DNA from: Chrysomallon squamiferum
Lineage: Eukaryota > Animalia > Mollusca
Assembly: GCA_012295275.1 (NCBI GenBank)
Contig: CM022672.1
Location: 4,154,001 to 4,218,000, forward strand
Direction of reading: 5' to 3'
DNA: 64,000 nt
The position numbers were made by a program, and so were the translations under genes. Under the pieces are notes generated by a model, which did no database searches, had not been told where the DNA came from, and saw only the letters and a program-made list of their open reading frames with translations. This document shows positions 3,612 through 64,000 of the stretch, one piece after another. The first letter of the stretch is position 1, and each line of letters starts with the position of its first letter.

Positions 3612-3642
<31 letters not shown>

Positions 3643-4701
3643 CATATTTTTTTTTTATTTATATAATTTGTTTCATTCTTTTAATGCAATATAAACAAAA
3701 TTTTCATTTTACATTTTTCTTGAAATTTTCACATGACTATTTTTAATTATATTTAATGAAAACTGACTTAATATTTAAAACATTCAAATCAAAGAAACAG
3801 AAATAAATTTATTGATTACTCAACATAATTTGATCAAATATGAAATCAGAATGAAAAAATTACTATTGTTTTCTGTAACTAAAATAAAAATTTGTCTTCA
3901 ATTATCGTAATGTAAATATTTTTGTCTGTTTATTGCTGCTAAGATGGACCGAGTGGAAACTTTGAAAGAGGAAAATGCTAAACTTCGTGAAAGTTTAGAA
4001 GAATTGAGAAAGGAAAATGATGGTTTGAGAAATGTTAAAAAAGACTATGATGAATTAAAAGCAAGGGCAAGTGTCATATTTTTTGCTTTTAAAGATTTTA
4101 TGTGTGAATGGTTTGTTGTGTTTTTTTTTTTTTTTTTTTTTTTTAATATGTTATTTGTATTTTTATTTTTTATTTATTTTTTCTTACTTTTTTTTTTTAT
4201 GTTTGCAGTGTTTTTTATATATATTTGTTTTGTTTTTATACCAGTAAATCTTTTTTTTTATTTTTTTTTTTTTTTATTTTGTGAATTGCTTTTAATATTT
4301 AGTAATTTGTTGTTTTTTTGTTGTTTTTTTTTTTTTGTTCCTTGTGTGTAGAAACTAGAACTGGACGATTAGATTTTTTTTTATTGTTATTTTCATTTGC
4401 TGGTTTTTGTTTTTATTTTTATTTTTATTATTGTTACTATTTTTAATATTATTATTATTAATTTTTCATTTTTAAAAAAATAGAAAATAAATTTTCTTTT
4501 TGTTTTTGTTTTTATATATTATTTTTATTTTTTATTATTTTGTTATATTTTATTTCTTTATTTTCTTTATTGTTTTTGATTTTGTTCTTTAGTTAAACTG
4601 TTTAACAGGTTAATTAAATTAATAAAAAGTCATTGATTTATCATTTAATTTTTAAAATAATCAAATATTTGTTTTTAACCTGTTCCACAATGGCAATACT
4701 T

Positions 4702-4748
<47 letters not shown>

Positions 4749-7700
4749 TTTTTTTTATTATTATTATTATTATTATTGGGGTTTTTTTGTTGTTGTTTTT
4801 TATTTTTTTATTTTAGTTATTATCTGTAATCTATTAATAGTTAGATGTTTTTATTAAAATTAACTGATTTTTGTTTTATATAATATTTTAATGTTCAGTT
4901 GTTGCTTTGACAAAGGCTATAAATATTCAAATATAATAAAAAAAATTTGAACAATGAAAAACAAAATTGAAATGTTATTTATTTATTATTATTATTTAAT
5001 TTTTCTTGTTTATTGTCAAAGATGGTAAGGAATTCACCTATGTTACTTATTTTATTATTTTTGTCCAGTATGTAAATTAATAAATGTGAAATTATTAATT
5101 AATTTATACTTTAGTTTGAAATATTACAAAATGATTTGAAAAAAGCAACCCAAAGGCAGGAAAATGAAGATGAAAATAGTACTAATAGACCAAAATTGGA
5201 TAGTTTACCTTTTGAAAACAAGATGACAAAGTTACACAATATCATTAAAAATGGTGACACAGAAAATACCAGTACCATTAGAAACATGGTTATGGAAGAG
5301 AAAACTAATGATTTGCAGAATGATATTGACAGATTAGAATCTAGAGTAGAACATTTAGAAGCTGGGAAATCACTGGATCAGAATGCAGAACATAAACAAT
5401 TTTCTAATAGTGTTTCTAGAAAACAAATTGAAGGAACTGTTACAGAATACATTAGTAAAAATTCTGAAGGACACTGTACAGAGGATTGCAGAGGTCAACG
5501 TGCACAAGAAAAGAGTTTTAACCACAGAACGAATCATTCCAGGGTGGACTTTGGTGAAAAGGAAAGGGAATCTGAAAATATGTTTGAAGATGAAACTGAA
5601 GATTTATCAAAGAATGCAGCAGAAACTGTTTTTCCTGTGAGAACTTATGAAGAGTTCTTGGCTGAGTCTGGACTTAAAAGACCTGAGATTTTTGTCCCCA
5701 AAAGACCAATAGGAGAACATTTAGAGAGAGAATGTAGATACACAGATAAATCAACTAGCACTGAACCATTTGAGGATAGTTCAAATAAAACAAACAAGTC
5801 TGAAGTTCCATCATTTCAATGTGGGAATGTGAAAAATGAGACCAAACAGTCAGAAAATGAATCAGGAAATGTTTCTGAAAATGTTAATCAGCAGTCATCA
5901 AATTCTACTGAAATAAAAATTTTGCTGACGAGATGCAGAGAACTGGAGAAACATAAGTCTGACCTTCAGGCTGAATTGAAGGTAACACAGTCAAAATTAA
6001 ATAAAATAATGCATCTGGAAACTGAAAACAAAAACTGCAAGAAAAGATTTCCACCTTGTGTGAAGATCTGCAGTGTATGGAAAAGGTGAAAGTGGAAAAT
6101 TCAAGTCTTAAGCGGCTGTGCGAAGAGAAGAATGTGCAGATTGGGAAGTTACAAGAACAGATCAGGTCGCTGGAGAGTCTGGAGATGGAGAACATTGAAT
6201 TGAAGCATCAGGTGGAAGGAAAGATTCTTGAACTTCAGTTTCTCAGTTCTGGAGATCTGAAAGGAATGCAAGCCAAACTGAGAAAGCTGGAAACTGTTGA
6301 AAGAGAAAATCAGGTGTTAAATGAACAGTTGGAAGAAAAAATAGCTGAATTGGAGAAACTGAAACTCATGTTTTATGAGTACAACTCCTCTGTCAATTTT
6401 GATTTGACAACTAAAATGGATTATGCTGCAACTGAAGATATTGATCCAATAATGAGAAATCATTTTAGTTCTAAATTTGAGGATATAGGAGTGGGATCTA
6501 GCAGACACAGAAATCGAAACTGTTTTTTTACAAACAGAAAGAAGAATGAGAAGAACTGTTCAATCACTGGAAAAGATCAGCAGAGAAATGTGTCTAGAGT
6601 TAGTAATTCTGTACACACATCCACACAGACTGACAATGATAACACAACAAACTGTGCTGCTGATAATTCAAACATTCTGACTCTAAATATAAAAAATTGA
6701 CTGGAGAGGATAAATCCAGAGATATTCCAGATTCTAAAAGTGTTTCAGAAACATCTGTAAAAGTCAATGGTGCATTTGAATCAAAGACAGTGCCTTCAAA
6801 ATGTGCAGAGGAATTTGCTCAAAAGTCTAAAAATCTATTTAAAAAACCCACTGAAAGTGATGAATCCAAGACAAGGTCTATGTTGATAACTCTGAGATCA
6901 AAGCTGCAGAAGCTTCAAGAAGTGGAACAGAAAAACTTGACAGTGCAAAAGAAACTTGAAGACTCAGCCAAGTTGTTGAAACAAAGGGTAAAATAAACAC
7001 ATTGTCTCAACAGACATTTAGTGAGAAGCACTGTCACAGTGTGCATGGTTGTACATCACTTGTTATTCTAAAATAAAATAGCTCACAATATAAACTGGTG
7101 TTATGGTGCAAAGTATTGTGATGATAAGACAAAACATAATGCACACATTTATTACTTTATATATTTTATTACAAAAAAAAAATCACTGAAAAAGGAATGA
7201 GTAAAATATTGTGTACTACCACTGCCATTACCATTTGCACAGAATAATGTAAATCAGTTTGACATTCACTTTTTACTTTAAATTTTATTTTTGTATACAT
7301 TTTTTAAACAATGAAAAAAAATCTTGTGGTACAAAGAAAAAATTTCAAGTTAAGGTAAAATATTGCAGTGTCAAATATTTTTACACTTAAACATTTATTT
7401 ATCACAGTGTTGTATTCTAACAAAATATATAATTTACTTGTATTTTTTTATTCTGTTATTTTATTTTATTTTATTTTTATTATTATGTTGTTGTTTTTTT
7501 AGAAACATGGAATATATTATACACAAAATTTTTGTTGAGGCATTTGAATTTATGCTTATATATTTGTTTTATTTTTTTATTTTTTTTTTTAATTAAAATT
7601 TTTTTATATTAACTGAAGTTTATATTTTGTACCACAAAACAAATTTCTCTTCACTGTTGAAAATATTACACCTATCATTTTCTTTCAAAATATGGATGAA

Positions 7701-10700
7701 TGTTAAAATAATTGAATTGTGTGTGTATGTTGTAGTATTATTATATTTTAAGTTTTGAAGTAGGTTGTTGTTTTTCATTTATTATATACATGTTGTAAGT
7801 TTTATGTGTTTCTTTTTTCTTTTTTCTTATTACAATGATTTGTTAATAACATTTGTTTTTCCTGTTGCATATTAATAATGGCAAGTTATTTTGATATATT
7901 CTTTATCTATATTGTTAAAATATTTGCATTTCATTGTCCAATTTTAATTTTTTGATTAATGTTATTGTTTCTAATTAAAAATAATTGAATGTTTAAACAA
8001 AATGAAACGTGATAAATTTTTAATCAATATTTTTTAATAATGGATATTATTATATAATATATATATATGAGGAAGAAAATGAGACATTTTAAAGAGAATA
8101 AAAGGTAGAGAAAGACTGTAAAAAGTTAAAATATAAAGACAAGAAAGAGAAAAAGAAAAAGACAGGGAGAGAGAGACAGAAAATAAAAAAATAAAAATGA
8201 TATCTTTGAAAATAAATTTTTCTTTTGAGGAAAATCTAGAGATGTTTTCAGTTCATAGGTCTGTCAATAAAATCTCTCTTTTTATATGAATGTTTCTATA
8301 AGTTTCTAATGTTTGATTATATGTCTGTGTAAGTATTTACTAAGTACAAAATAAGTAAATAAATAAATTGAGTTTTACATGTTTTCTTCTTCCAGAAACA
8401 AACACAAAACAAGAAAATAATTTTTTTTCTCTTTTAATTACAGTTTGATGAATTGGAAAAACAGAAAACTTTACCAGACATAACAGCACTACAGACTCAA
8501 GTAACCCACCTAGCAGAGAAATGCAGAGAAAAAGATGAAACCATACAACAACTTATGAAAGAACTTCAGACATTAAAATTGACAGGGGAGACTACTCCAT
8601 CTTCTTCAGATATTCGTCAGAAAAGTAAAGAAACAGACCAGTACATTCACCATTCACCATCATCTACACCAGTATCAGTAAGTCATCATCATCATTTTTA
8701 AATATTTTTGTTCTTCTACCACTACTATTGTTATTACTTTTACCACTATTGCTACTATCAGCTTATAGTTGTCATATGACAAATATTTAACAGACTGTTT
8801 AAAAAAAGGTTATTCTGGAGGTCAGAAAGAAAAGACTCCTGACTGAAATTTCCATTTATGTTGCTTTTGAGGGCAGGGAACCTTGTTTTTTTTCTTTTAT
8901 TACATTTTTTCTTTTATCATTTTTGGGGGGGAGGTGATGATGAGAAGGTATGAAATATTTTTTACTCAAGATGTAAAAAATGAGACACAATTTAATCAAA
9001 TTTAAATTAGTTTCTTGTTTTTTCTTTGTATTATTATTATGATTTATTTTATTCTATTATTATTTTTTTTTTTTATTATTACTATCATCATCATTATTAT
9101 TATTATTACTGTTTATATTGGGCAGGTTTGTGGGGTTGACCAAAAGATGAGAAACATAATTAAAGTTATATGTTGTTTGTTTTTTTGTTTTTTTCAGATT
9201 GTTATTTCTCCAGCTGATAAAGATCTGGAAACATCTCCACTGAGCACACAGCCCAGTGAGTTTTGTTTTAAAAGTTTTTTCTTTGACATTTTTGTCTGCC
9301 AAATCCTTTAAAAGTGTTCTCATAACAGATTACCCCAGTATGTAGTACTGTCAATAGGTTTTGTATGATGTACGTTTATCTGATTTAGTGTTCAGTGTTA
9401 TTCAGTGATATTTATTCTGTTATATGGTCAGTAAAATCTTTTAACAATTTTAATACTTGTATCTTACATATTCTTGAATACCTTCCTTTACACTGTCCAG
9501 TTCTAAAAAGTATTTCTTGATACCTAAGGAAGGAAAATAGTAAAAATCTCTGGTCATTTATTCTTATACTTTATTATTAGCAAATTTTGGTTATAATTAA
9601 CCAGAGCAACCAGTCACTTTAAGATACACGAAATATATTTAAACTTTTTTGTTTCTTTACTTAACAGATATATTTTGATCAGATTCAAATATACAAATTT
9701 TCTTTTAATTATAAAAACATGTTTGTTTAATTAAACTTTAAAGTAGATAAAATGTTTTAATTTTAATTAATTTTTTTTCAAAGTGTGTACCTCCACCCCA
9801 GTAAAGGATTCATCTACCCACATACGTCACACATCAACAACTCAGACCTGTGAGAGCACCAGTGTTACTTCAGCTACACAGACATCATCATCCAGCAGAC
9901 ACAGACTTCTCCCACGAAGTCGTAAGTTTTGTTTATTGTATAAAATTATTTTTATTTTTGTTTTGTACTTCATTTGAATATTAGTGATTACTCTTTTATT
10001 ATTTTTTATTATTAATTATTTATTTGTTAATTTATTAAAACTATTAATTTATTCAGTTTATTTTTTGGTAATTTTGTCTTAACTTAGTTTTATATATGAA
10101 TTTTATAAATAAAGTAATAGCATCTCTTATTCCATTTAACCAGTTTTTTTGAAATTTGCTTTTGAATAAATTTTATTTTATTCAGTGATAATAATCATAA
10201 TAAATTAATTGGTTAAATAGTAAAAATCAAAAAAGAGGGGGCTGAAATACAAAATATTGTTTAAAGATCTGATTTAAAATTATTTAAATATTTTTTATTC
10301 TATATATTCATAGCTTCTCCACAACCACCAAAGAATTTCCGCATTTCAAGGCTCATTGGAAACACAGGCATAATGTTGTCATGGCAACCAACAAAACTAT
10401 TGGAAGATGAGAATAGCAACAGTTCATTTGTCATTGGTTACAAAGTAAGTGGAAAAAAAACAATTAAATAATACTACAAAGAAAACAATAATAACAGTAC
10501 TAACAATTAAATAAGTACATTAATTAATTAATTAATAAACAAATATTAAAACAACTCAAGTAATTACCACAGCAAAAATCTGAAATATACCTATTAAATA
10601 AATAAATAATAATAAAAATAACCATAAAAATAAGAAAATCAATTAATTATAATGAAAAATAAATATCAAAATTAAATAAATAAAAACAACATATAACTAT

Positions 10701-12057
10701 TTACAATAAATAAATGATAACGATTGAAAAAAAAAATAAATAATAACATGAATCAAAACAATATCAAAACTGAAATTAAACAAGTAATAGTTATGATAGC
10801 AATAATTACAAATGAACATTTCACATTTCAGCTGTTTTTGGATGGTAGACTGGTCCAGCAGGTATCAAACCCACGCACTTCAAAAACTGTGATAGAAAAC
10901 ATTGACGTTGCTGAACCTCATCACTTTGCCATACAGACAGTAGCAGCAAACAATCAGACGTCATCGCGGGTGGAGTTGATTACGAAGGTATCGCTCCTGT
11001 GGTGACAGCGATTCAGTGTCATCACTGGACACATCCATCATGTCCAGCATTCAGTTTGATGAGAACTACAAGCGACTGGTCAGTGGGCGATGTTTGCATT
11101 TGTTAATGTTGTTGTCATTATTAAGTTAGTTTTATTACCGTTGATTTTATTATGAAATTGTTGTTGTTGATATTGTTACAGTATTATAAATTTATTATTA
11201 TTATTTTAAAATTGTTATTTATCATTTTGTATCTTCATCGTCATCATTATTAGTGTTATTAACATTGAACTGTGATTTTAAAAATACGTTTTTGAAATGA
11301 TTCATTTATTATTATTTAATAATTTTTGTTTTTCAAATTATTATTATATTATTATTACAATGTTATTTGTTGAATTTATCATTTCAACATTTACTACTTA
11401 TAGAAAAGTAATTAATTAATTAATATTTTATTTTTTTATTTTTTTTTATTTATTTATTTATTTCTATTATACCAAACCCCAGAAATACATTTTTGACATC
11501 ATCAAAAAAATAATTGACTGTTGTTTATGGCTATCAGACAACAAACTTCACAAAACTGAAAATAACTAAACCAATAACTGATTGTTATTTGTAGCTAGCT
11601 ATGACTGCAACAATCAGAAAATGAATGATGATTAAAACAATAACTGACTGGTTTATTTATTTTTTTTATTTTTTATTATTGTAGTTTATGGCTGTTTATG
11701 ACTACAACCCTCAAAAGCAACCAGATCAATATTACTCAAAGTACGAGCTGGCTTTCCGAGCTGGAGATATTGTAGCTGTGTATGGTTCACAGAGATCTGA
11801 TGGGTACTACCATGGAGAGGTGAGTCACAAAACTAATTAAAACTCACTGATCTACATCACATGTTTGCTTTAGTCTGGCTTTAGTTTGGCTTTAGATTTA
11901 TTTATTTTTCAGTATTGTTGTTGTTGTTAGTAGTAGTAGTTATAATAGTTTTAGTAGTAGTGATAGTAATTTTATAATTTTTTGTTTTTGTATTTAGAAA
12001 TTTATTCCATTATTATTAGTAGTAGTAGTATCATCATCATCGTCGTCATTATCATTA

Positions 12058-19443: not shown

Positions 19444-21759
19444 TGTGTGTTAAAGAGTTACCAGCATGGCAGGTGCTCGGAAGACGTAGCTGAAAGGGTA
19501 GTTTATCAGATTCATGAAAGACGCAGCGTACAGATCAGCGTATCTCATCACCTGACTGGCAAAAAATGTCTGTCGAGAGCCTGGTGAATAAACAGATAAA
19601 TAGACAGACAGACAGACAGACAAATAGAGAGATAGATAGACAGAGAGACAGACAGACAGACAGACAGATAGATAGACATAGAGAAATAGACAGACAGACA
19701 GACAGATTTAAAAAAAAGAAAATCAATACTTTTTTCAACTTAAATAGATATATAAAAATTATTTCAATAATTAAATAAACAAAAAATAAATAATAGTAAT
19801 ACTGAATAGTTTTAATAATAACAATAATAATAATAATAATAATAATATTTATAATAAAAAACTATTAATTATGACAGTAGTAACGCATTCGAAGTAACAG
19901 AACTAGACTGAAGATACTAACCACTTCTGAACAGACTTCCCAGAATTCCATATGACATGTCCATTTCATGTGTCACTTGCTGGAAAGGTAAACAATCAAA
20001 TTCAGTTTGACAACAACATTTATAATAACTGCCTGTGTATTTATTACTTTACTGACATTACAGAACACTAAAGTATATTTAACTGAAAATTCAAATTATT
20101 CAGGACAAGTTTGCTAATTTAAAGATGCGTAATGGACTCAGTATATTTAACCACACAACTGAAAAGGTGAATAATTTTGTAAAATTACACACACACACAC
20201 TAAATCTATAATTTAATTGATTCTATGTCTCTGTTTACATTTTTTGTTTCACCAAAGGACACTAAGTATATTTAACTGGACTTTCACATGATCAAGTACA
20301 TCAGTTAATTTAAAGTTGTTGTAAACACAGAATGTGAAATCTCACCCGTATTTCATGCTGGATGGCGTAAATGTCTGGTTTCTCTGAACAGCTACTGTCC
20401 AAATTCCTGAAAAAATAATTTTCAAAATAATTTAATAGTTACTTGCAATAATTAAACAAACCAACCAACAGAATAAATAAATATAAAATGAAATGAAATG
20501 AAATTAAAAATCATAATAGTAATAATAATAAAAAAATTTGTAACAACATTTCCTAATTAAAGAAAATAAGTAAAATGTGATGAAAATGAAGCCAAGTTAA
20601 AGATAATAAAGAAAATAATTAATTAAAATAAAATATATAGCAAAAAAATATATATATATAGTAAATATATATTCTCTTTTTTCTCCATTTTCTAATTAAA
20701 AAATAATAATAATAATAATTTTAAAAATTCTCCAATTTACCACTTACAGTAAAACAAATTTAGAAACAAATTTCTCTTCTCTAGTCTTCTAATAATTTTG
20801 TTTTTACTAATTTAAAAGATTCTCCACTTTTGCAGTTACAGCAAAAAAAAAAAAAAAAAAAATTTGCTAAATAAATATCTCTTATTTTCTTCAATCTTCT
20901 AATGAAAAACAAAAAAAAGACAAAATAAATATAGCTAAGTTAAAAACAGCTGCGATTTTGTAAGTGTAGGAAAACGTACTTGTACATCTCTCCTATTTTA
21001 CAGTCAAGCTCTGCCAGCTTGGAGTACAAAGCTCTCCTGCTAGTCCAGACATTTAGTTCTTGAGAAAGTTCTGGAACACAAAGAAATGTCCGCCAGCCCA
21101 CTTTCTTTGACTTCTGAATGTCACCGAAAATGTGATCACCAACATACAACACTTCATTGCCATACGTTCCCATCAGTTCCGAGAACACATCAACAGAACC
21201 TGAAATGTCATTTAATGTTTGAGTGCTAAATATGACAAGGTAAAAAATAAAAAGAACTAGTTAATAGTCAACAAACAAAACGAAAAGACGAAGTAGTAGT
21301 TTTTATTATTGTATTTCATTATTGCTCTTGTTGTTGCAGTTTAAAACTGATTTAAAAGAGTTTATGTTATTTGATATGACATCGTATTACTGTTTTCATC
21401 ATTATTACTATAACTACTGCTACTGCTATTATTACTACTACTACTATTACTATTATAACAATAATAATTTATATAAGAAAAGAAAGGAAATAGCTTTATG
21501 ATATTAATTTCATATCTTATTTTTATTAGGAAAGATTGGAAGTTTATTTTTTTTTAATTTTAATATCTGCTTTGTGTCTATATCGTAATTGTAAAATTTT
21601 GTATAATATTATGAATATGTCACTAATACTAAAGACTAATATGCAGACCTCCAGAATAAATATGGTCCGATGAAATGGGCCCTGTATGGGTTCCAATTTT
21701 TAGTGATCCAGTTTTCTGAACAAGCAAAAATAAATAAATAAATAAAATAATAATAATAA

Positions 21760-21792
<33 letters not shown>

Positions 21793-22452
21793 TTTAAAAT
21801 GTAAAATAACAAAATAAATTTAAATTAAATAAATAAAAAATAAAAATATCTATTTAAACAAATTATGTAAACAATGTTATAATTTTTTTTTTCCAAACAA
21901 CTTTTAAGAATAAAATTAATAATCACTGTTAGGTAGGTCTTGTAATTTTCAATCTGTAACTTTTTTTATATATAAAATAAACATCTTTCTATCATAAATA
22001 GATATGTGAAAATAATTCTAAAATGTATTTGTAATTTTAATTGTTTTTGTTGTTGCAAATTAAAAAAAAAAAAATTTGAGACAACTCTTCTAACCTTGTC
22101 AACCTGACGGAGTATTGTCCCCTGCTGAAAGAAGATTGGTTTGCTTGTGTCACAGAAAATGTAGTCAAAGTAAGACATCCATTCTCGTTTGGGCGATCCT
22201 TCCTACAAAAACAGTTTATCTCATATGTATATAAAATCTTTTTACTAGCAGATTTTGAAAAACTTTTCATTTTTAAAGCACCATTCCAATTTTGTTTTAA
22301 TATTTTAGTAAATTTTAGGCAACATACACATATCCTCAAAATCAGAAAGAAAAAAAAGATGGAATTTCACAATACATATATATATAAGAAAATAAATTAC
22401 CTTTTGTGGAGGATAATCCAGCAAATAAGTCATAATTTTCTAAAATTAAAAG

Positions 22453-22503
<51 letters not shown>

Positions 22504-25500
22504 TAAAAATAAACAACAAAAATAATCATATTAACAGCTCTTGCTGCATATTGAACATAATTACATAAAAATTATAATTTATTATTTAATGATGAAGGGA
22601 ATTTTTTTCATTAACCTTTAAAATATTTTTATTTTATTTTTTTTTTTTAAAGCACTTCATAAATTTAAATAAGTAAATTTTTTAAACTGATCAAAAAATA
22701 CATTTATTTTTATTTTCTTAATGCTTCTAATATTAAAATAATGTGAAACTGTTATTTAGGAAGAGAACTATGACGTTTAATTTTTAAAATATAAAATATT
22801 TTCTATAATCAACATAACAAAAGTTTCTTTTTCATTCACAGATTCTGACTAGCTGATTAGTCTTAAGATTTGTATATTGTGAAAACAGTTCTAAAATTAA
22901 TACATACATTTGTGAAGTTGAAGTCACTGTTCGTGGCAAGAAATACTTTGGCACCGTGATGTCTTAACCTTTGTTTAAAATATTAAAATTATTTATAAAA
23001 AGTGATTTGAGGCTGTGAAAGCATTTGTCATTTCCTTTTCATTCACAAATATTTATAATAAGATTTTATTAAAATATTAAGATAGTAGTAATAATAATAA
23101 TAAAAATAACAATAATAAAAGAAAATATTTTTATATCAGAATATAATTTTTTTTTTTTTTAAACATTTAACATTACACATTAATAAATAAATATTAAAAT
23201 AAATAAATATTAAAATAAATAAAAAAATAAATAAATAAATATTAAAATAAAATAAAATAAAATAAAATAAAATAAAATAAAAAAATAATTAAAATGAATT
23301 TGTTCTTTTAAAAAAACCCAGTATTACATAAAATAAGATATTTTAAGATACCAGATAATCATTTTATTTACTATATGCAAAAATACTTTAACATTAATAA
23401 AAATTTGTAATTTTAAAATATCACATACACAATTATAATTGCCATAAGAATATATTAATTTTTGAAACTTTTGAAATTTAGATAATTAAGAAATTTACGT
23501 GATTAAGAAAAGAAATTATTTATATTACCTAAGTATATTAATTTTATTATGTTGATATTAATGAATTTTTTTTAATTACCTGTCTAAAATGACTGGCAGT
23601 CTGTCATCCTTCAAAACATAGTCTTTGACATGTTTCACTGTTTCTGTCTTCAGTGGTCCCTGAAAACAAGTTAAATAATTAACATAAACACACACACACG
23701 TTTTTATATATATATAGATAGACACACACACACAAAGACAACTAAATAACAGATTAAATTAAATTAATTTATTAAAATGGAAACAAAACAAATTAAAAAA
23801 AAAAAAAAAAAAATGTAACAAAATAAAATAAAATCTAATAAAATAAAACAAATTAAAGTAAATTAAAATAATAAAATATATATATATTTTTTTTTAAATT
23901 AAAACAATAACTCAAAAACAAAACAAAATAAAATTAAATTAAAATACAGCATAATAAAACAATATAAAAACAAAACAAACTGAATTATACTGAACAAAAT
24001 ACACTTTCACCCTAAAGAAATTTAATACCTAAATTACAGTTATTATGATTACTATGAAATAAGGAACGGCTTAATGGATTAAAACCTCCTTTACTCAAGC
24101 AGTTTGAGTTATTTCCCTTCGACTAATTTGAAGATCTAATTGAAAATCTGACTAGTGGAAGTAAGACCTGAACACTCTTTAGGTTTTTCACTGGTAACAA
24201 GTAAAACCAAAAGTAAATTTACCCATAAATGTAGACACAAACAAATATATACATGCAAATAACAAGTATGTGTTTGTGTTGCATATATCTTTTACAGTAT
24301 GCAATTAGAGTGATAAGTGATATATATATATTTAGTTGTTGGCATTTGACTGAAAACATATTTGATAAAATCTTACATCTTTTGCATGGATATAGTTTGT
24401 AACTGCCAAAACATCCTGATAAATTGAGGTGAAGGTCATTGTAAGGTCACCATATTTGACGCCAGTTTTGGTTCTGAAAATTCAGTTTAATTTTTATCAT
24501 TATCGGTGTTACAGCAAATACATCCATTGTTAGAACAAAACAACAAATGAAAGAAAGAAAGAAATAAAGAAATGTTCAATATGTTTATAAAAGTGTATGT
24601 AAAAGTAATAATAATAAAAAATGAAAACATGACAATTATCTTTACTAGAAAAAACCAGAAATTAATTTAAACAAATAAAACAAAATAAATAAACTAAAAA
24701 TTAGCTTCCTAAAGAAATAAAACAAAATAAAGAAATAAACATTTAAGTTAAAAAAAAAAAAAAAAAAAAAACTGAATAATATATTTATTTTTTCTTTCAA
24801 ATAGGATGATATACAATCACTAAAACTTAGACAAAATACTGAGAACAAAAACAAATGTAATTATATCTCTTATTTTGTCAAATGTTTATCACGCTATCAA
24901 GACACAAGGAGACATCAAGGGTCAATGATTTTTACCTTTAAATATTTTCTGTCACAGATAGAGGATTTTTATTTTTTTTTTTTTTTAATTTTTGAGAAAA
25001 AAAAAAAATCCGCTGATTCAGCTGACAGCAACATCAACAATAATGTCAGAAAAATTTCAAAAATGATTATACAACTTAAATCTTCTTTTCCATAACTGAT
25101 GCGAAAAGATACTACAACATCAGAACTGATGAGATGATAACATAAAATTAACTGCAGTTGGACAATAATATAATATTTCAAAACAGGCAAACAAAACAGT
25201 ATTACAAGCTAAAAATGATATCAAAATTACAAAAAACAGCCTAATGTAGTGTAAAACATCAGTTTACCTGATGTATTCATCGCTGTTGCAGAAGAAGTCA
25301 ATAAGACAAGCGAGGATGTAGAGAACTGAAATAAACAAAGCAATCAACTGTCACTGTGCTTAGTCAAGTATTTTCATTGCTGTAGCGTGCACTTGTTAGT
25401 TATTACATAAAAACAGTTTATAGAGAATTTAGAGTACACTTACTTGTTCACTTACACATCAACATATAGCTCATATCCAACCAAACAATAATACACACAA

Positions 25501-50715: not shown

Positions 50716-50873
50716 TACTATTATTATTATTAATTGTTAATTTTATTATTATTAATAAGGGCACACATATTTTTTATAATTTCTGAAAAGATATTTAAAT
50801 TCTATTTTCATAATTTCTATTATTATTATTATTATTGCTGTTGTTTTTGTTGTTGTTGTGAACGACATAATAA
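50716..50873 (+). repeat. Left copy of direct duplication flanking the viral element
   Basis: cacacatattttttataatttctgaaaagatatttaaattctattttcataatttc(tat)n..gacataataa; matches 55063-55252. Confidence 0.9.
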
Positions 50874-51313
50874 ATATTGGTGTGACTAACTTCGAGCAAC
50901 ATTAACAGGGCCATAGGCCATGGCAGCTTCGTTAGCTCAGACACTCAGGCATTGCTCAAAGTTACTCAGGCTTAGACATTGCTTGAACTTACTTGCAAAG
51001 AGCCATTGCTACCCACCTGCCCACCCAGTTACTAGTTCTACTCCTGGAATTATTATAATAATGAGAGGTTTATTTTGGGGGCTCACCAAAGTCCCCTTTT
51101 GGGGGATTTTGAGATAACTTATCTATTTTAGTGACATACAAACAGGTAAAGCAAAGATAACATGACGAGTGTAAACATTTCAACTTTTTATTCAAGGAAG
51201 CACTTAAAATAGCATCTGGTTAACATGACATAATAGCAAACGAAATAAAAAATAATGAATGTTCACAGTTCTGTAGTAATGACAGAGATTTGGTACAATA
51301 GTTTTTTCATGCA

Positions 51314-51319
51314 TTTATT
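51314..51319 (-). terminator. Polyadenylation signal of the viral transcription unit
   Basis: AATAAA overlapping the TAA stop of the last viral frame; further AATAAA at 51192-51187. Confidence 0.45.
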
Positions 51320-51866
51320 GGTCCAGGATAACAGTCTTTTGGCTGTCTTCTCTGTCTTCATCAGCAGCATCATCCAAGTTGCAACAGCCATCATCTGAGA
51401 AAAAAGCTTGACTTTCTGCAGGCTTCTGTGTGCTTCATTTTTTTAGCTTCCCCATTTTCATCAGAGTCAAAGTGCAGTTTCTTTTTAGGTAAAGGCTGTC
51501 CCTTAGGCTTTTGTAGGCAAAGTGATCTCGGCCTTTTAGATGCTTTTGCTTGTTTAGTTGTCGTTTCTTCATCTTTGTCTTGGCGAAAGAAAGGTTTGCC
51601 TCTAGGACAGGCTGGTTGTCTCTGGTATTTCTAATTCTGACTGCATCTGGTGTCATCCATTGGTCTATGGTCTCTTCGAGCAGTTGGTCTCCTTTTTGAA
51701 TTTGAATTTAGGATCATAGATGTAGTTGCCACCTTCATTGGTGGTGAACCTCCTTAGCTGTAAGTATTGTGGATGGAAGAGGGTGTACCCTGGAATTGCT
51801 GATGAGGAGAGAGTAGTGTTTCTTTCTGAAGGAGTTAGCTTCGTTGAGCAGCATTTGGTGAGTCAT
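51315..51866 (-). pseudogene. Decayed small viral gene downstream of capsid
   Basis: accATG at 51866 after a TATA box. Frame-broken segments MTHQMLLNEANSF.., ..IPGYTLFHPQYLQLRRFTTNEGGNYIYDPKF.., ..KASKRPRSLCLQKPKGQPLPKKKLHFDSDENG.., ..LDDAADEDREDSQKTVILDQ*; the stop lies inside AATAAA at 51319-51314. Confidence 0.55.
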
Positions 51867-51879
51867 GGTAAATTCAAAT

Positions 51880-51931
51880 GAATACTGGGTTAGCATGCAA
51901 GCGGGTTATATATAGCGAGATAAGCTTATCA
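51880..51931 (-). promoter_or_regulatory. Viral internal Pol II promoter: GATA palindrome, TATA box, Inr-like
   Basis: On -: GATAAGCTTATC (51930-51919), CTATATATAA (51915-51906), CCAGT/TCATT ~25-30 nt downstream, then accATG. Confidence 0.6.
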
Positions 51932-51937
51932 GTTTCT

Positions 51938-53725
51938 TCAGATATTGTGCTGGATGACGCGTTGATCCTTGTTTTTCATGTCAAATCTGTTTGAGATGTT
52001 GTTGTCCCAGCAAGCTGTTGTCTTCCTCAGGGCACGTTGTCTGTATGTTCGTGCTGAATATTGTCTCCATATCAGGTTTCTGTTTGTGTGACCCCTGTCT
52101 CTTTGTATACGGTTGTTCCACTCTTGTTTGCTTTTTCCTTTTCTTTGTTTATGCCAGGTAAGTGTTTCCTGTCTTTCTACTAGGCCTGTCATGCCGTAGT
52201 AAAAGCCTCTTGGATGACTGGTGTAGACTCCTCCTATTCCTACTGGAATGTAGTTGGGTACATAATGGCTTCTGTAGAAGAATTCTATTTTGGAGAAGTA
52301 AGTGATCTGCATGTTGGCGTGGTAGTTGTAGAATTTCTGACTGGCATCGTTTATGGGTTCAACATCAGGATAGCATCCTATTAGGTAGAGAGGAGGTCTT
52401 TTAGTCGATGGTTGCAGGAGTTTACCATGTTTGCCTCGTCTTGTCTTTTCTTCGTTTGGTGCTATGCTGACAAAGTCTAGGTACTGTTGGCCTTGTATGT
52501 GAGCTCCAACTGGAATGACTCCTTTGCGTCCTCTTACTTTCATATTTTCTGTGACATGGTTTTCGTCATCTCTGAGCGTGCGTCCTTCGTTTCTTCTAAC
52601 TTCACTTGAGAGGTATTGGTAGCGTATTAAGTCTTGAGGAGCGCTGTATTCAGAGCCTTGGTTTTGTGATAGCTGTTCCCGTGTGAGCCAGGGTGTGAGA
52701 GGTCCTTTTTGCACTTGTGGATTTGTTTCTGTGTACTGGTTTTTGCTGTCTGCTCCAGTGATGTGCGTGAAGTCAATGTCATGGCTGGATGCTCCAGGAA
52801 ACAGTATCAGAGGCTTGATGCCTATTTCAAATTCGCAAGACATGCCTCCTTCGCTGGCTGTGAATTCTCTGTAGGCTGGATGTTTTTTCATTTGGTAGAT
52901 GTGGTCCGGATTCGAAGAAGAGAATTTAGGAGGATCATCGCTTTGTTTTTCCCAGGCACTGTGTAACAGCATCATGGCTTCGTCTGATGGTAGTAGTATA
53001 TGTCTGTCAGGTAAGTCTTTTAGTTGTCTATCGGTTGCATCATCCAAGCATTCTTCGTCTTGGAAGTTTCTGTTGTGACTCAAGTCGGTGCAAGTCATGT
53101 CTGGCAAACAGTAGTCTCTGTTGACATCTATGAAGGACCAGAGTCTTGCATTTGGTGGAGGCAGTGCTGGAACGTTGTTCGGATCATTTTTCTTGTTATT
53201 TAGTATGTGCATCGTCATATTCGGAATATGGAATCCAAATGAATGTACTTTGTAGCCTATGCATTCATCGGGTAAGTTCCAGTCGGATGGAATGGTGCTG
53301 GCTTCTTTGAAGAAGTATGGTATTATTTTTCCTCCATGGTTGAAGGTGAGAATGGCTTTGTCTTGGTCTGTGAGTGTGTAAGTGGAGTCGTCTGGGTAGT
53401 CTTGGAATAGTATTTCTGCTTTTCTTGTTTTGGAGAATGTCATGAAGGAAGCGAATGTTCGTTTGAATGTCTTTTTCACGCTTACAAAGCGTGTGTCTGC
53501 TGTTTTTGTTATTCCTCCGAAGCTGGAGAATAGGACGTCATTTTGTTTGGCATCTGCTGCTGCATTCTCAGCTATGATGTCTAGGTTTTGATTTGGAATG
53601 TCGGTTTGAGTTCCTATTCCTAGGTCTTGATGTGGATTTTGTTGGCTTTGGGAGAGTTCCTCTTCATAAGACTCTTCATAGTTCATGTCTCCTGTTAGGT
53701 GTGTTTGGCTTCGTGTTCCATACAT
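51938..53725 (-). CDS. Parvovirus-like single jelly-roll capsid protein (VP), uninterrupted ORF
   Basis: First ATG at 53725 (track starts at GTG 53734; frame open to 53878). Motifs in the order seen in parvoviral VP: KTFKRTF; IIPYFF..STIPSDWNL (cf. AAV TPWGYFD..FSPRDWQRL); YKVHSFGFHIPNM (cf. FRPKRLNFKLFNI); LWSFIDVNRDYCLP (cf. VQVFTDSEYQLP); PPLYLIG..NYHANMQITYFSKIEF (cf. PPPQILIK..QYSTGQVSVEIEW). Recognised by eye, not by search. Confidence 0.8.
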   Translation of the reverse strand: MYGTRSQTHLTGDMNYEESYEEELSQSQQNPHQDLGIGTQTDIPNQNLDIIAENAAADAKQNDVLFSSFGGITKTADTRFVSVKKTFKRTFASFMTFSKTRKAEILFQDYPDDSTYTLTDQDKAILTFNHGGKIIPYFFKEASTIPSDWNLPDECIGYKVHSFGFHIPNMTMHILNNKKNDPNNVPALPPPNARLWSFIDVNRDYCLPDMTCTDLSHNRNFQDEECLDDATDRQLKDLPDRHILLPSDEAMMLLHSAWEKQSDDPPKFSSSNPDHIYQMKKHPAYREFTASEGGMSCEFEIGIKPLILFPGASSHDIDFTHITGADSKNQYTETNPQVQKGPLTPWLTREQLSQNQGSEYSAPQDLIRYQYLSSEVRRNEGRTLRDDENHVTENMKVRGRKGVIPVGAHIQGQQYLDFVSIAPNEEKTRRGKHGKLLQPSTKRPPLYLIGCYPDVEPINDASQKFYNYHANMQITYFSKIEFFYRSHYVPNYIPVGIGGVYTSHPRGFYYGMTGLVERQETLTWHKQRKGKSKQEWNNRIQRDRGHTNRNLIWRQYSARTYRQRALRKTTACWDNNISNRFDMKNKDQRVIQHNI

Positions 53726-53739
53726 TTTTTTCACTGTTT

Positions 53740-54576
53740 TTTTCTGGTAAAGTTTCAGGTCAGTTTCGAAGAGTGTCTGCGTTTTGTAGTTGTTTGTATA
53801 CTTCTGGAGTTGGAAATTGTGTGTTGAATTGATTTCTGAAGTCTTGCCAGAAACTGTTTGCTTCGAGTGGTGAGTATCCTAGTATTTGTTGTGCTTTTAA
53901 GAAGTTTTGTTTTATGCTTTCCCAAAGAATATGTGCTTGTTGTGGTCTTTCTCTCTGTCTTTTTCTCAGTTTGTTGATGATATTCTCTCTGTAGACTGCT
54001 TGTTGTGTGTTGACTATTCTTCCTACTTGTGGTCCTAGTCTTTTGGCTTTAGTATCTAGCTTATAATTCCTATACCTGTTTAAATGTTGTACAAGAATGC
54101 TGATGTCAACTGTTTGTGTTCTTCCGTCTGTGTGTTCTATGGATGTATTTGACGCGTTTTGTATTATCCAGTTGTTGCTAGTTTTATATTTCCTATACTA
54201 TAAGTCATATACTCCACTGTGTAACCACTTCTTAGGATTATTGGTTCTGTATCCTTCTTTTATGTCACTCCAATACTGGTGTTGGTAGATATTTGTTCAT
54301 ACAGTGTTCAGTGCTTACTTGATTGAGTTTTCTTTTCCTGTGAAGTCTAATATTTGACCTGTGTTGTCTTTGTTTTTCCACACTAAGTCTTCTTCTTTGT
54401 CTACTGGATGTAGTTTTTGGTTCGTATTTGTCTATTCCCTCTGGGTTTTCGTAATCTTTTGTAGATGTTGGCCCAGTTATTGTGTCTGGCCTATTTCTTC
54501 CTTCTTCTTTTAATTTCTCTTCTTCGTCTAAATAATTATAGAGTTTTGAGGAGCGCTCTTGACGAAATGTGTCACC
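53740..54576 (-). pseudogene. Decayed viral ORF upstream of capsid (possible VP1-unique extension or separate gene)
   Basis: One frame ~54420-53740 reads KLHPVDKEEDLVWKNK...HQYWSDIKEGY...NNWIIQ...LRKRQRERPQQAHILWESIKQNF...FWQDFRNQF with in-frame stops at 54317, 54299, 54200 and 53762; a frameshift near 54420 links to an upstream segment (KLYNYLDEEEKLKEEG...). Confidence 0.6.
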
Positions 54577-54943
54577 TTAAAAGCTCTGTTATGTTGTGAT
54601 ATGCGTGTCTGATTGGTGCAAACCTACTGCACCTAATTTGAACGTTAGCATATTACCTCTTACTGCTGTCATGTGACAGGATGTTAGTTTGAATTTTGAA
54701 CTTATTAAGCTTGGTCAGGTAAATGATAAGGAGAGATGTAATGTTAGACTCGGTTTAGATGAGTCTGCATAAGTTTATTGGTGCTGACAGATAGCTAATG
54801 TACTCGTCAGGTGTTAACTTTCTTAGTAAATGCTAACAAAAATGTCGCTATAATGGGGCAGCTTTTTTTATAATATTTTTTTTATTTTACTTTTTTTAAA
54901 AATATTTCAAATGTTATTTTTTTTTTTTTTTTTTTTTTAAATA

Positions 54944-55062
54944 CATTGGATAGGGCAGAGGCTTTGAAATGCGTACACCGTCAATGAAGTTGACATTGTC
55001 TACAGCCTGTCTTAACTGCAACAGTATGTGCCTTTCAAAGCCGCCACCCCCTCAATCCAATG
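54944..55062. mobile_element. MITE (~119 bp) with imperfect TIRs and TA flanks, Tc1/mariner-type target
   Basis: TA|CATTGGATAGGGCAGAGGCTTTGAAA...TTTCAAAGCCGCCACCCCCTCAATCCAATG|TA. Confidence 0.75.
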
Positions 55063-55163
55063 TACTATTATTATTATTTGTCATTAGTTTACTATTATTA
55101 ATAATTACACACACATTTTTTATAATTTCTTAAAAGATATTTAAATTCTATTTTCATAATTTC

Positions 55164-55215
<52 letters not shown>

Positions 55216-55252
55216 GCTGTTGTTTTTATTGTTGTTGTAAGTGACATAATAA
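55063..55252 (+). repeat. Right copy of direct duplication flanking the viral element
   Basis: Same sequence as 50716-50873 with a few substitutions and a longer (ATT)n. Confidence 0.9.
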
Positions 55253-56844
55253 TTATTATCTAAGCATTTGTAAACCAGTTAATTTTAAAATTATAAATAA
55301 TATGTCTGTGTGAGTGTGTGTTAGTGTGTGTGTCCTCTAAATATCCCTAGATCAAACCCATGTGGGTGACCAACTCTTCTGTTTTTAGACTGGTACACAA
55401 CACATATTATGACATAAGTATATGGCGCCAGTCTTTAAGATGAAAGGAACCACAAACTCATTTGTCCATACATTAGAACAAAGATTAAAGACTTGTAATG
55501 GCTTACTGCTTTAAGGCAGAACATTCAGAGTAATAATGCATAACTGTTTTGTTTATTATGCTAATTCAGTGAAATCTGTTATATGTTTTTCTGTCTGTAA
55601 AGAATGAGTAAAACATTCTAAAATGCAGCTATCTTCAAAACTTCCTTTTCTTTCTTTTGTACTCCTATTTATTATTTTTAATTTATAAATTATTTTTTAT
55701 ACAACTTATGTTGTAGTGATTTTTTTTTTAATGTGGAGTTTTATATGAACAATGATAAAATATTGAATATCTGTTGCAATACTTCTCAATCAAATAAAAA
55801 AAAATAATAATAATAATAAAAAAAAAAAATTAAATAAGTAAGTAAATAAATAAATAAATAAAAATAAATAAAAAATAAATAACAACATTAAATAGCAAAG
55901 CTTTTAAGCCATGTATTTTTACCAGTAGAATTTCATACATTAATGTTTTTTGATAATTTAATTTTTTTTTTTTTTTTTTTTTTTTTTTGTTGTTGTTGTT
56001 GTTGTTATTGTTGTTATTGTTATATTATGTTACATTATTGTTTGGTTTGTTTATTTTTTGGATTTATAATGCATTTACTGTTATGTGTGTTTCATTTTAT
56101 TTATGTATTTATTTATTTATTTAATTTTATTTTTTCTAACTTTTTAAAAGTAATATTAATTTTAACCAGTTAAATGATTATTCATAGAGTAATTTAAATA
56201 AAACTTTAGTTAAATGCACAATTTGTCCTGTACTTATAAAAACAACAGTAATAATGTTCTATACTAATGTTTCATCTCCTTTTATGGCATAAAAATGGAA
56301 TTATGGGTAACAGACTGAAATCTTAAACACCAGAACTAATTTCCTCAAAATCTTTAGTCAGTGTGTGAAACAGGAAGTAACTCTTCAAGATCTAAGGGAG
56401 AAAAAAAGAACCAGGTCAAAGTTCAAGGAGAAATCTAAAGCTTTGACATGTGTGACCTGTTCAAAGCAACAAGTGGAACATTGTTATACTTTGTTATACA
56501 AGACCACATTTGATTGGTCAGTTTGAAATAGACTGGTGTTCTTAATAACACTGGTACAGACACCTGTTACATATGTTTGAAATGAACACCATGGTGATTT
56601 AACAGCATGAATGTTTTCTAATTGTTTACCTTCTCTGTAGTTTAGCATAACATTACACTTTAGGGTTCATTCATCCAGTGTGTTCAAACAAGAGCTGTGA
56701 TTTTTCTAATCCCCTATAGCAGCAATGCTTTTAGCATCTCTGATTACACCACTGGCTCCAGTCTGGATGTATATGCTTTCTTTTTACATCAGATTATACT
56801 GGTGTGTTTTGTGTTCACTAAACCCTAATTACTCTCTTAGTATG

Positions 56845-57095: not shown

Positions 57096-57777
57096 CAAGT
57101 GATCATTTAAATCAGTTAACCTTAATGAACCAAGACATTATAGCTAATAACACAACAACAGGGAGTTTCATTACACCAAGTTTTCTCAGTCAGAGAGCTG
57201 TCAGACCAGAGAATCAAGTGTTAATTTAAACAACCCAAGTGACCAACATCCAACTGGACAATTACCAACACAAAAACCTCGGCCATCATCAACATGAATG
57301 GACACTCACAGGGCCTGTGACCTGACTGTGAAAGTTTTTGTTGTGTGGTCAGATCCCAGTCCTTGGTCCCAGACCTTGGTCCTAGTCCTTGTCACCGAGA
57401 CATGACACCCAGGACAGATGCACGAGACTTGGGTTTGTGTTTCGGTCAAAGGCTGACATGTCCAGTGTGGGCTACAAGTAGTGGACACTGGCCATTGTTG
57501 GCAGGACACAAGAGACACCCCCTTCACCCCTTCAAGGTGTTTGCAAAAAGAACAAATCGGAGATCTCTGCCCCTCTTCCAGAAGTCAAAAAGGGTAATTT
57601 AGATTATACTGAGTAGTGGAAAATGATTTCTCTAAAGCTGGAGAGAAAAGACGGCAAAAACATAAACAGAAATCCATTCATGCAGATATCATATATCAAA
57701 TATTCACATACTGACAAAACGATACACACACCCATATACCCATAAACATATATACTCTCTTTATATGTATATATATA

Positions 57778-63014: not shown

Positions 63015-63292
63015 AGAGCATTTGTAACATGCAGCATTTCAAACAGGGATCATTTCTAACACAGAACCTCAAACTGGGACCATTTTTGACATACACCATT
63101 TAAACCAGGGACTAATATAGCACTTCAAAGTGGGACCACTTCTTGCAATGATCACCATGAAAAATGAACCATTTCTAACATCTAGCATTTTACACAGGGG
63201 CCATTTCTAACAGTGAACCTCAGACTAGGGGCCATTTGTAACACTGACCACCGCAGACAAGAGGTTTTTCATGCACCACTTCAAAGTGGGAT
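63015..63292. repeat. Degenerate ~30-bp tandem repeat
   Basis: Recurring (a)ca(a/g)ac(a/t)ggg(a/g)ccatttctaaca unit. Confidence 0.6.
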
Positions 63293-64000
63293 GGATTCTG
63301 ACATGGGACCTCTTCAACATTTATGGTCCCACAAAGAATGGCTGCCAAAAGATGACTGGATGTAAGCAAACAGGGGGATTTTCTCAAGTGAGTGAGCAGC
63401 ACAATGAAGTGAAACTCAGTGGAGCAGTTTGTCAACAGGTCATTACCGTGACAGATGTTTCCACAAACAAGGCAGACAAGATGGTCGTCCACCTAGGAAA
63501 CTGCCATTGTGATTTATTGGTGCCAGTTCATGAAGATAATTTAACCCTTTTTTGAAAGTCATACTCCAGGTATGAAGATGTGATGGATGGCTAGAATGAA
63601 TGAATGAATGAATGAATGAAATAAAGGAGAGAATGAATTAAAAAAAAGAAAAAGAATGAACTAAAGATGAAATTTTTTTTTAATGATTTAATGAAAAAGA
63701 AAAATAATCAATAAATCAACCAATCAATCAATAAATCAGTCAGACAGCTGGTTAATCAATCAGTGAGTTAGTCTGTAGTTTAATGTTAACTCTTTATATT
63801 TTTATATTAACTGCTGTGTTTCATTCATTTGAATTTTAAATAATAGTACAGGAGAAAAAAGCCAAAGAAGCAAATTTTTGGTTTCTTTTATTAAATTACT
63901 TGTTTATTTTCTTCCTCACTTTATTTCTGTTGTTTTTGTTGTGTTTATTTATTCACCTAAATTCACCTTAACAGAGATTCCGCTCAGAATATACCTAACT

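Follow-up and report, generated by a model that had tools for sequence, protein, structure and literature searches.

The 64,000-nucleotide (nt) stretch of Chrysomallon squamiferum DNA analysed here, hereafter the window (assembly GCA_012295275.1, contig CM022672.1, positions 4,154,001 to 4,218,000), carries an endogenous parvovirus-like element that has a capsid gene and no replication gene. What kind of molecule was inserted at this locus, and why does it lack NS1? The element spans positions 50879-55064 of the window, about 4.19 kb from hairpin to hairpin. The best reading of its origin, to which we assign a probability of roughly 0.55, is a large parvovirus genome from which an internal deletion removed the NS1 cassette. 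Positions below are those of the window, and features lie on the minus strand unless stated otherwise.

Terminal hairpins and the bounds of the element

The first-pass annotation had confined the element to 50875..54862, but the element reaches 55064, and the second hairpin lies outside those bounds. This left terminal hairpin (54942..55064) is a Y/T-shaped structure of 123 nt with a folding energy of -30.2 kcal/mol (z -6.80); none of 200 shuffled sequences was equally stable, the opposite strand gave z -5.96, and all five flank controls fell between z +0.4 and -1.6. The right terminal hairpin (50883..50968) is Y-shaped and folds at -16.5 kcal/mol (z -4.19), again with 0/200 shuffles equally stable, the plus strand giving just z -1.43. 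When 720 folding windows over 44-62 kb were ranked by energy, the left hairpin took third and fourth place and the right hairpin eighth; a TA-repeat stretch at 57.7 kb outranks the left hairpin. The two hairpin regions are unrelated in sequence, sharing no 8-letter word, and the element has no inverted terminal repeats (ITRs), the longest match between its ends being 9 nt.

Each hairpin adjoins one copy of a duplicated host sequence, the upstream copy at 55063..55257 and the downstream copy at 50716..50878. These copies of about 160 nt differ at 16 of 162 paired columns, and within the window their two non-repetitive cores occur in these two places only. Judged from the sequence, the duplication is likely a target-site duplication; pending comparison with an empty site, an earlier tandem duplication of host DNA is also conceivable. 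The stretch was present in nine public runs from three studies of one organism, among them possibly the run from which the window derives; seven were aligned, six with cover over the element. A contig from run X3 (54591-55130) runs through the left hairpin into host DNA, and a contig from run X1 (50866-51047) spans the right hairpin without a difference, so the junctions are not an assembly artefact. Because there is a hairpin at each end and each adjoins the host duplication, the element is a whole molecule, complete at both ends. It thus has the linear form with hairpin ends expected of Parvoviridae, known here as integrated DNA only, and it retains the hairpin at each terminus, a feature that is often lost from metagenomic assemblies. 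Just inside the left hairpin lies an A-rich tract (54863..54939; 77 nt, 74% A) with small insertions in another allele, which is possibly a deletion scar or a microsatellite expansion.

The absence of a replication gene, claimed in the first-pass annotation, held up. Across six frames of 50860-54900 there was no Walker A, GPxxTGK, PLA2 (YxGPG, HDxxY) or PolB motif, and the four HUH-like trimers found had no supporting context. Searches of Pfam and NCBIfam with 6, 9 and 8 frames of the window returned no match below E 0.05. The other hallmark of Parvoviridae, an NS1 with HUH endonuclease and SF3 helicase, is therefore missing, and on that account the element is parvovirus-derived rather than a full member of the family. 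A search of Rfam likewise gave no match.

The element also stands out in composition, as had been proposed, with GC of 0.40-0.45 over 51001-54000 (five 1-kb bins) against at most 0.38 in the bins outside it, and its coding strand has a strong A skew. Upstream of the coding frames, a putative promoter-like non-coding stretch (54673..54862) holds motifs that we take to be a CRE half-site, GATA and E-box sites, and 54575-54940 is closed, with 7-13 stops in each of the six frames. A GATA inverted repeat followed by a TATA box (51907..51931, the box itself at 51914-51907) precedes a short broken open reading frame (ORF), ORF-C, and a second GATA inverted repeat (51112..51124) lies near the right end; these are the only two occurrences in 64 kb. 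Two AATAAA signals follow (51187..51319), at 51319 and 51192, the first overlapping the ORF-C stop. The TATA box and AATAAA of the first-pass annotation are thus present on the minus strand. Its three-gene layout is not: the frame at the 3' end of ORF-A, which precedes the capsid ORF, encodes a capsid N-terminal domain, so there are two units, a capsid unit and then ORF-C. On the plus strand, a CACCC box, GATA sites and the start codon of a frame of 16 codons point from the right hairpin into the element (51021; 51112-51170), with AATAAA at 51244. These could be the remains of an antisense unit, but such motifs are at chance level, and for that reason an antisense NS promoter at the right end was considered and rejected.

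The capsid gene and its family

The large ORF at 51938..53725 is intact, as first described: it encodes 595 amino acids, is open throughout, and is predicted to specify a parvovirus-type capsid with a single jelly roll. Folded from a 31-sequence alignment, the model reached a predicted local distance difference test score (pLDDT) of 61.7 and a predicted template modelling score of 0.63, with residues 1-70, 351-440 and 545-595 among the poorly modelled parts; the single-sequence fold had pLDDT 29.8. In a structure search with this model, all 20 chains at Z>=8 were parvovirus capsids, and the next match had Z 5.7. Foldseek agreed with this picture, in line with the single jelly roll that the first-pass annotation had anticipated, and an Atlas lead for a relative of the capsid agreed weakly (0.87). 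The best fold match was the capsid of Syngnathus scovelli chapparvovirus (9nek; Z 15.7, root-mean-square deviation (rmsd) 4.8, 302 residues aligned), and that of Bombyx mori densovirus 1 also scored well (3p0s; Z 14.2, rmsd 4.0, 271 aligned). Identity to the best fold matches is 8-11%, and no sequence match to the solved capsid structures was found. The likeness in the model is thus one of fold only, and the capsid cannot be assigned to a subfamily. Homology to a brevihamaparvovirus VP was not seen either, with no sequence match to solved capsids and 9% identity to 8erk, the capsid of Acheta domesticus segmented densovirus (AdSDV).

In a full HMMER scan, the capsid recovered 49 clusters at E<=0.001, 25 of them at <=1e-30; the family to which it belongs is unclassified and numbers at least 49 clusters. 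Word-based searches at the protein level, with either the capsid or its alignment, found no relatives, nor did scans of viral contigs, a genome-contig scan or a phage tblastn; a metagenome scan gave one 1011-nt match, on an apparently chimeric contig. None of the 28 relatives scanned had a capsid match in Pfam. The literature searched, with subscription papers outside its scope, held no account of the element or of the capsid family. Two relatives, P0039 and P0040, lie on ENA contigs of 297 and 560 kb and are further probable endogenous copies. Another, P0031 (984 amino acids on a 3276-nt contig), has PLA2 fused ahead of the family N-terminal domain; its contig barely exceeds the ORF and may be a fragment, or else a molecule that carries the capsid gene alone.

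In long relatives, the protein starts with a short conserved domain, and the jelly roll follows in the same frame. A profile of this domain, built from 29 relatives, matched the ORF-A frame 54197-53763 with E 2e-5 among 2027 window peptides, the next match having E 1.2; its score of 22.1 bits compares with a best of 13.0 in 1000 shuffles, and the profile also matches ten relatives outside its building set. The domain lies at 53802..53963, in a frame that differs from that of the capsid ORF, and is 32% identical to P0040 over 50 amino acids. The ORF-A region (53740..54672, with frames 54576-54265 and 54197-53763) is therefore likely the 5' part of the capsid gene, and its matched part is capsid N-terminus, not the C-terminus of a parvoviral NS1. 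No homologue was found for its 5' two-thirds; the 5' frame did not match the PLA2-bearing P0031, and in the Atlas an ORF-A frame met unnamed clusters only, all under 0.9.

Whether ORF-A is decayed and the element intron-free, as the first-pass annotation held, is less certain. When 76 splice-donor-like sites were scored with frequency tables, the two highest-ranking were both in ORF-A, each with a phase suiting the next frame. The frame breaks are common to runs X1, X3, X4 and X8. There are no gaps in ORF-A in the X1, X3 and X8 contigs, nor in X4 over 53897-54805. Against splicing, the matching acceptors rank 24 to 67 of 245 and the third donor 42 of 76, the RNA contigs are unspliced, and in X4 an allele carries small indels immediately ahead of the start of the capsid ORF. 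From the sequence, we put the odds that ORF-A is spliced onto the capsid at about even.

An element without NS1

Our preferred account, internal deletion, would begin with a monopartite virus of 6-7.5 kb from an unclassified lineage. Its capsid gene would lie upstream of NS1, which would act on these ends in rolling-hairpin replication. Some 2-3 kb would then have been lost, either from a defective genome that was copied and packaged with helper NS1 or after insertion. The scar of this loss would lie at ORF-C or at the A-rich tract. The molecule would have been captured during germline break repair, duplicating about 160 nt of host DNA. Unable to replicate alone, it would now drift as a host allele, inert except perhaps for transcription of the capsid gene. 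Defective parvovirus genomes with internal deletions, for example of minute virus of mice, are known from cell culture, although our literature search returned none; they too keep both termini, lose the interior and are copied in trans.

Deletion is favoured because the relatives lie on contigs of up to 7489 nt and the named ones probably have NS1 in cis. Among the Logan rows of relatives, 39/56 are on contigs longer than the element, 24 at least 6000 nt and 7 at least 7000 nt long; the sizes were counted on 52 rows, the four left out being 1024-1894 nt. The named relatives are QKE54994 (E 1e-43) and QKE55004, which follow QKE54992, the capsid of a bar-headed goose parvovirus, in accession order. 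The same ordering places them in the block MT138329-MT138334, whose members are all classed by NS1, and by this accession arithmetic they probably come from MT138329 (7244 nt) and MT138334 (7497 nt). In these two genomes from goose cloaca the structural ORF lies upstream of NS, and a third ORF is present (PMC9001828). They resemble the element in having the structural ORF first, and are the probable source of the capsid-family relatives. They differ in being free viruses whose 7.2-7.5 kb hold NS1 as well as a third large ORF (PMC9001828); their capsids, about 29% identical to that of the element, also fall in a different clade. The Swazi bat megaparvovirus lineage likewise has large genomes, extra cassettes, no PLA2 in VP and endogenous copies; it differs in its order, PLA2-unknown-NS1-VP, and in a capsid that lacks the N-terminal extension (PMC13426907). 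The PMC13426907 supplements do not include the relatives' accessions.

ORF-C (51315..51866) is broken into overlapping open stretches of 43-90 codons, has no homologue or family match in our searches, and differs between alleles by four separate indel events. It has a TATA box to itself and stands where the NS gene of the goose genomes would start, and it may be a remnant of the NS cassette or a small accessory gene.

Several observations weigh against internal deletion. Neither a trace of NS1 nor a deletion junction could be shown in the element, and in the six runs with cover no allele carries extra sequence and no joints appear. Like a whole small gene, ORF-C comes with a TATA box, a start codon and, at its stop, a polyadenylation signal. 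Over the core, identity of the capsid to its best relatives is no more than 28-31%, and the clade of large-genome viruses (support 98 and 0.998) does not include it. QKE54994 and QKE55004 are named 'hypothetical protein' at NCBI and may be the third ORF of their genomes; their link to those genomes is one of accession order.

The first-pass annotation had proposed an integrated structural segment or a capsid-only satellite, and part of that proposal has gained ground: the second hairpin strengthens the case for a complete molecule, although internal deletion, the main rival, had been missed. As a segment, the element would come from a segmented parvovirus unrelated to AdSDV, with NS1 supplied in trans by a partner molecule with the same hairpins. 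It is complete from hairpin to hairpin, of packageable size and without NS1. The AdSDV vp segment measures 3.3 kb and has T-shaped hairpins instead of ITRs and a second promoter (PMC10267136). As on that segment, a capsid cassette stands alone between non-ITR hairpins without NS1, and the capsid unit is followed by an ORF with a putative promoter of its own; in the element, promoters and polyadenylation sites are seen as sequence motifs. The differences are the smaller size of the AdSDV segment, its 378-residue brevihamaparvovirus capsid, a downstream ORF that encodes PLA2, and a known partner segment, and the AdSDV capsid was the weakest of the 20 parvovirus fold matches (Z 10.1, rmsd 4.1, 229 aligned). 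AdSDV arose among monopartite relatives, so large monopartite cousins do not exclude a segment here. In our trees (a quick IQ-TREE run, and FastTree without P0038 and P0040), the capsid of the element sits on a separate, long and weakly supported branch with genomic copies from sea slugs. These nearest neighbours, Elysia chlorotica RUS86780 and Plakobranchus ocellatus GFO18425, belong to the same capsid family and lie on 700-kb host scaffolds; they differ in being partial proteins. On the other side, segmentation is described for one parvovirus in the literature found, the sister clade appears monopartite, and among the loose ends listed (15/16 and 19/43) no contig sharing an end continues into other sequence, although a partner NS molecule need not be integrated. 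We prefer deletion to a segment because segmented parvoviruses are, to our knowledge, rare and because loss of the cytotoxic NS1 is an easy route. The segment is accordingly a tentative alternative. With the same reserve, the element might record a second independent origin of parvovirus segmentation: a whole structural segment of a multipartite virus whose lineage probably infects molluscs, encoding a long capsid protein made by splicing and, separately, an accessory gene, and preserved from end to end in the germline of its host.

The remaining origins are much less probable. A satellite with nothing but a capsid gene, dependent on the NS1 of an unrelated helper parvovirus, would also have both ends and a capsid gene and no NS1, and present data do not tell it from a segment; it is nonetheless improbable, being without precedent in the literature found, and the contigs of most relatives exceed the length expected of a molecule with a capsid gene alone. 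A bidnavirus-like or Vesanto-like segment with a protein-primed polymerase is less probable again. Bidnavirus capsids are parvovirus-like, and Vesanto virus has up to twelve segments of 3.3-5.8 kb; those segments have ITRs (PMC8363768), which the element lacks. Its ends moreover fold as self-priming hairpins, for which protein priming has no need, and the bidna-like option raised in the first-pass annotation is weakened. Least credible is an ordinary parvovirus insert truncated at its 5' end. NS1 normally lies upstream of the capsid gene, which is what makes such a truncation worth considering. The left hairpin is present and adjoins the flanking duplication, however, which excludes a simple truncation; in addition, the 365 nt upstream are closed in all frames, and among the alleles examined none had NS1 upstream.

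Even if NS1 was lost by deletion, the locus identifies a capsid for an unclassified lineage of large-genome parvoviruses that has no match in Pfam or, by sequence, among solved structures, and ties this lineage to animal germlines, sea slugs included. Should the element prove to be a genuine segment, parvoviruses would have become segmented on two or more occasions, and contigs with only a capsid gene or only NS1, now set aside as incomplete, would deserve another look.

Alleles and host neighbourhood

The element is endogenous, as annotated: viral sequence is joined to host DNA, is allelic, and is crossed at both junctions by contigs. Divergence among its alleles reaches about 4%, as it does in the flanks, a pattern that fits one old insertion. 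Run X2 holds 0.87 of the stretch's words and no contig over the element, and run X9 leaves 53010-54483 uncovered; these gaps are uninformative. X1, X4 and X9 each have a contig that departs from the right hairpin at 50968, on the opposite strand, and then runs on into the same flank; loose ends occur at 50968 in three of four runs. The right hairpin thus comes in two allele classes with the same host junction, both present in X1 at depths of 34.5 and 30.3. The sequence suggests that the second class is a fold-back form of about 72 nt, some 14 nt shorter. A flip/flop inversion of the hairpin was rejected, as the coordinates do not fit, and an apparent low-diversity island in the capsid disappeared once X4 and X9 were added.

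Whatever the origin of the element, the open capsid frame might be maintained because the host uses it, perhaps in antiviral interference. The flank copies differ at 16/162 positions, and in simulated decay at 4% an intact 595-codon frame was left in 6% of 500 runs if substitutions alone were allowed, and in 0/500 once frameshifts were included. Both well-supported capsid indels (+18 and -24) keep the frame, and contig depth in the RNA runs is 8-13 inside the element against 0-5 on the flanks. We nevertheless regard host use as doubtful. Seven of the 21 listed capsid differences are synonymous against 5.6 expected (P 0.32), a neutral-looking share; with decay set to 1.5%, 13-34% of runs retain the frame; and the microsatellite-rich flank may mutate fast. 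One low-depth contig has a 1-base gap in the capsid, and both RNA runs come from one study, with contigs that cannot show transcription.

The host DNA around the element is that of an AT-rich animal genome. At 57200-57600 and 63220-63560 the sequence is richer in GC and holds open frames of 90-108 codons on both strands, with no Pfam match. Exons of a cytosolic 5'-nucleotidase (PF05761) lie on the minus strand at 19453-22982 and probably continue to about 29000, with further likely exons recognised by eye at 23.6, 24.4, 25.3 and 28.9 kb; host exon scans of 148/180 candidate peptides, and of 30 more, did not place the 5' end of this gene. A multi-exon coiled-coil gene occupies 1741-11005 on the plus strand and includes a match to a RIMBP2-like Ig domain (E 1.8e-5).

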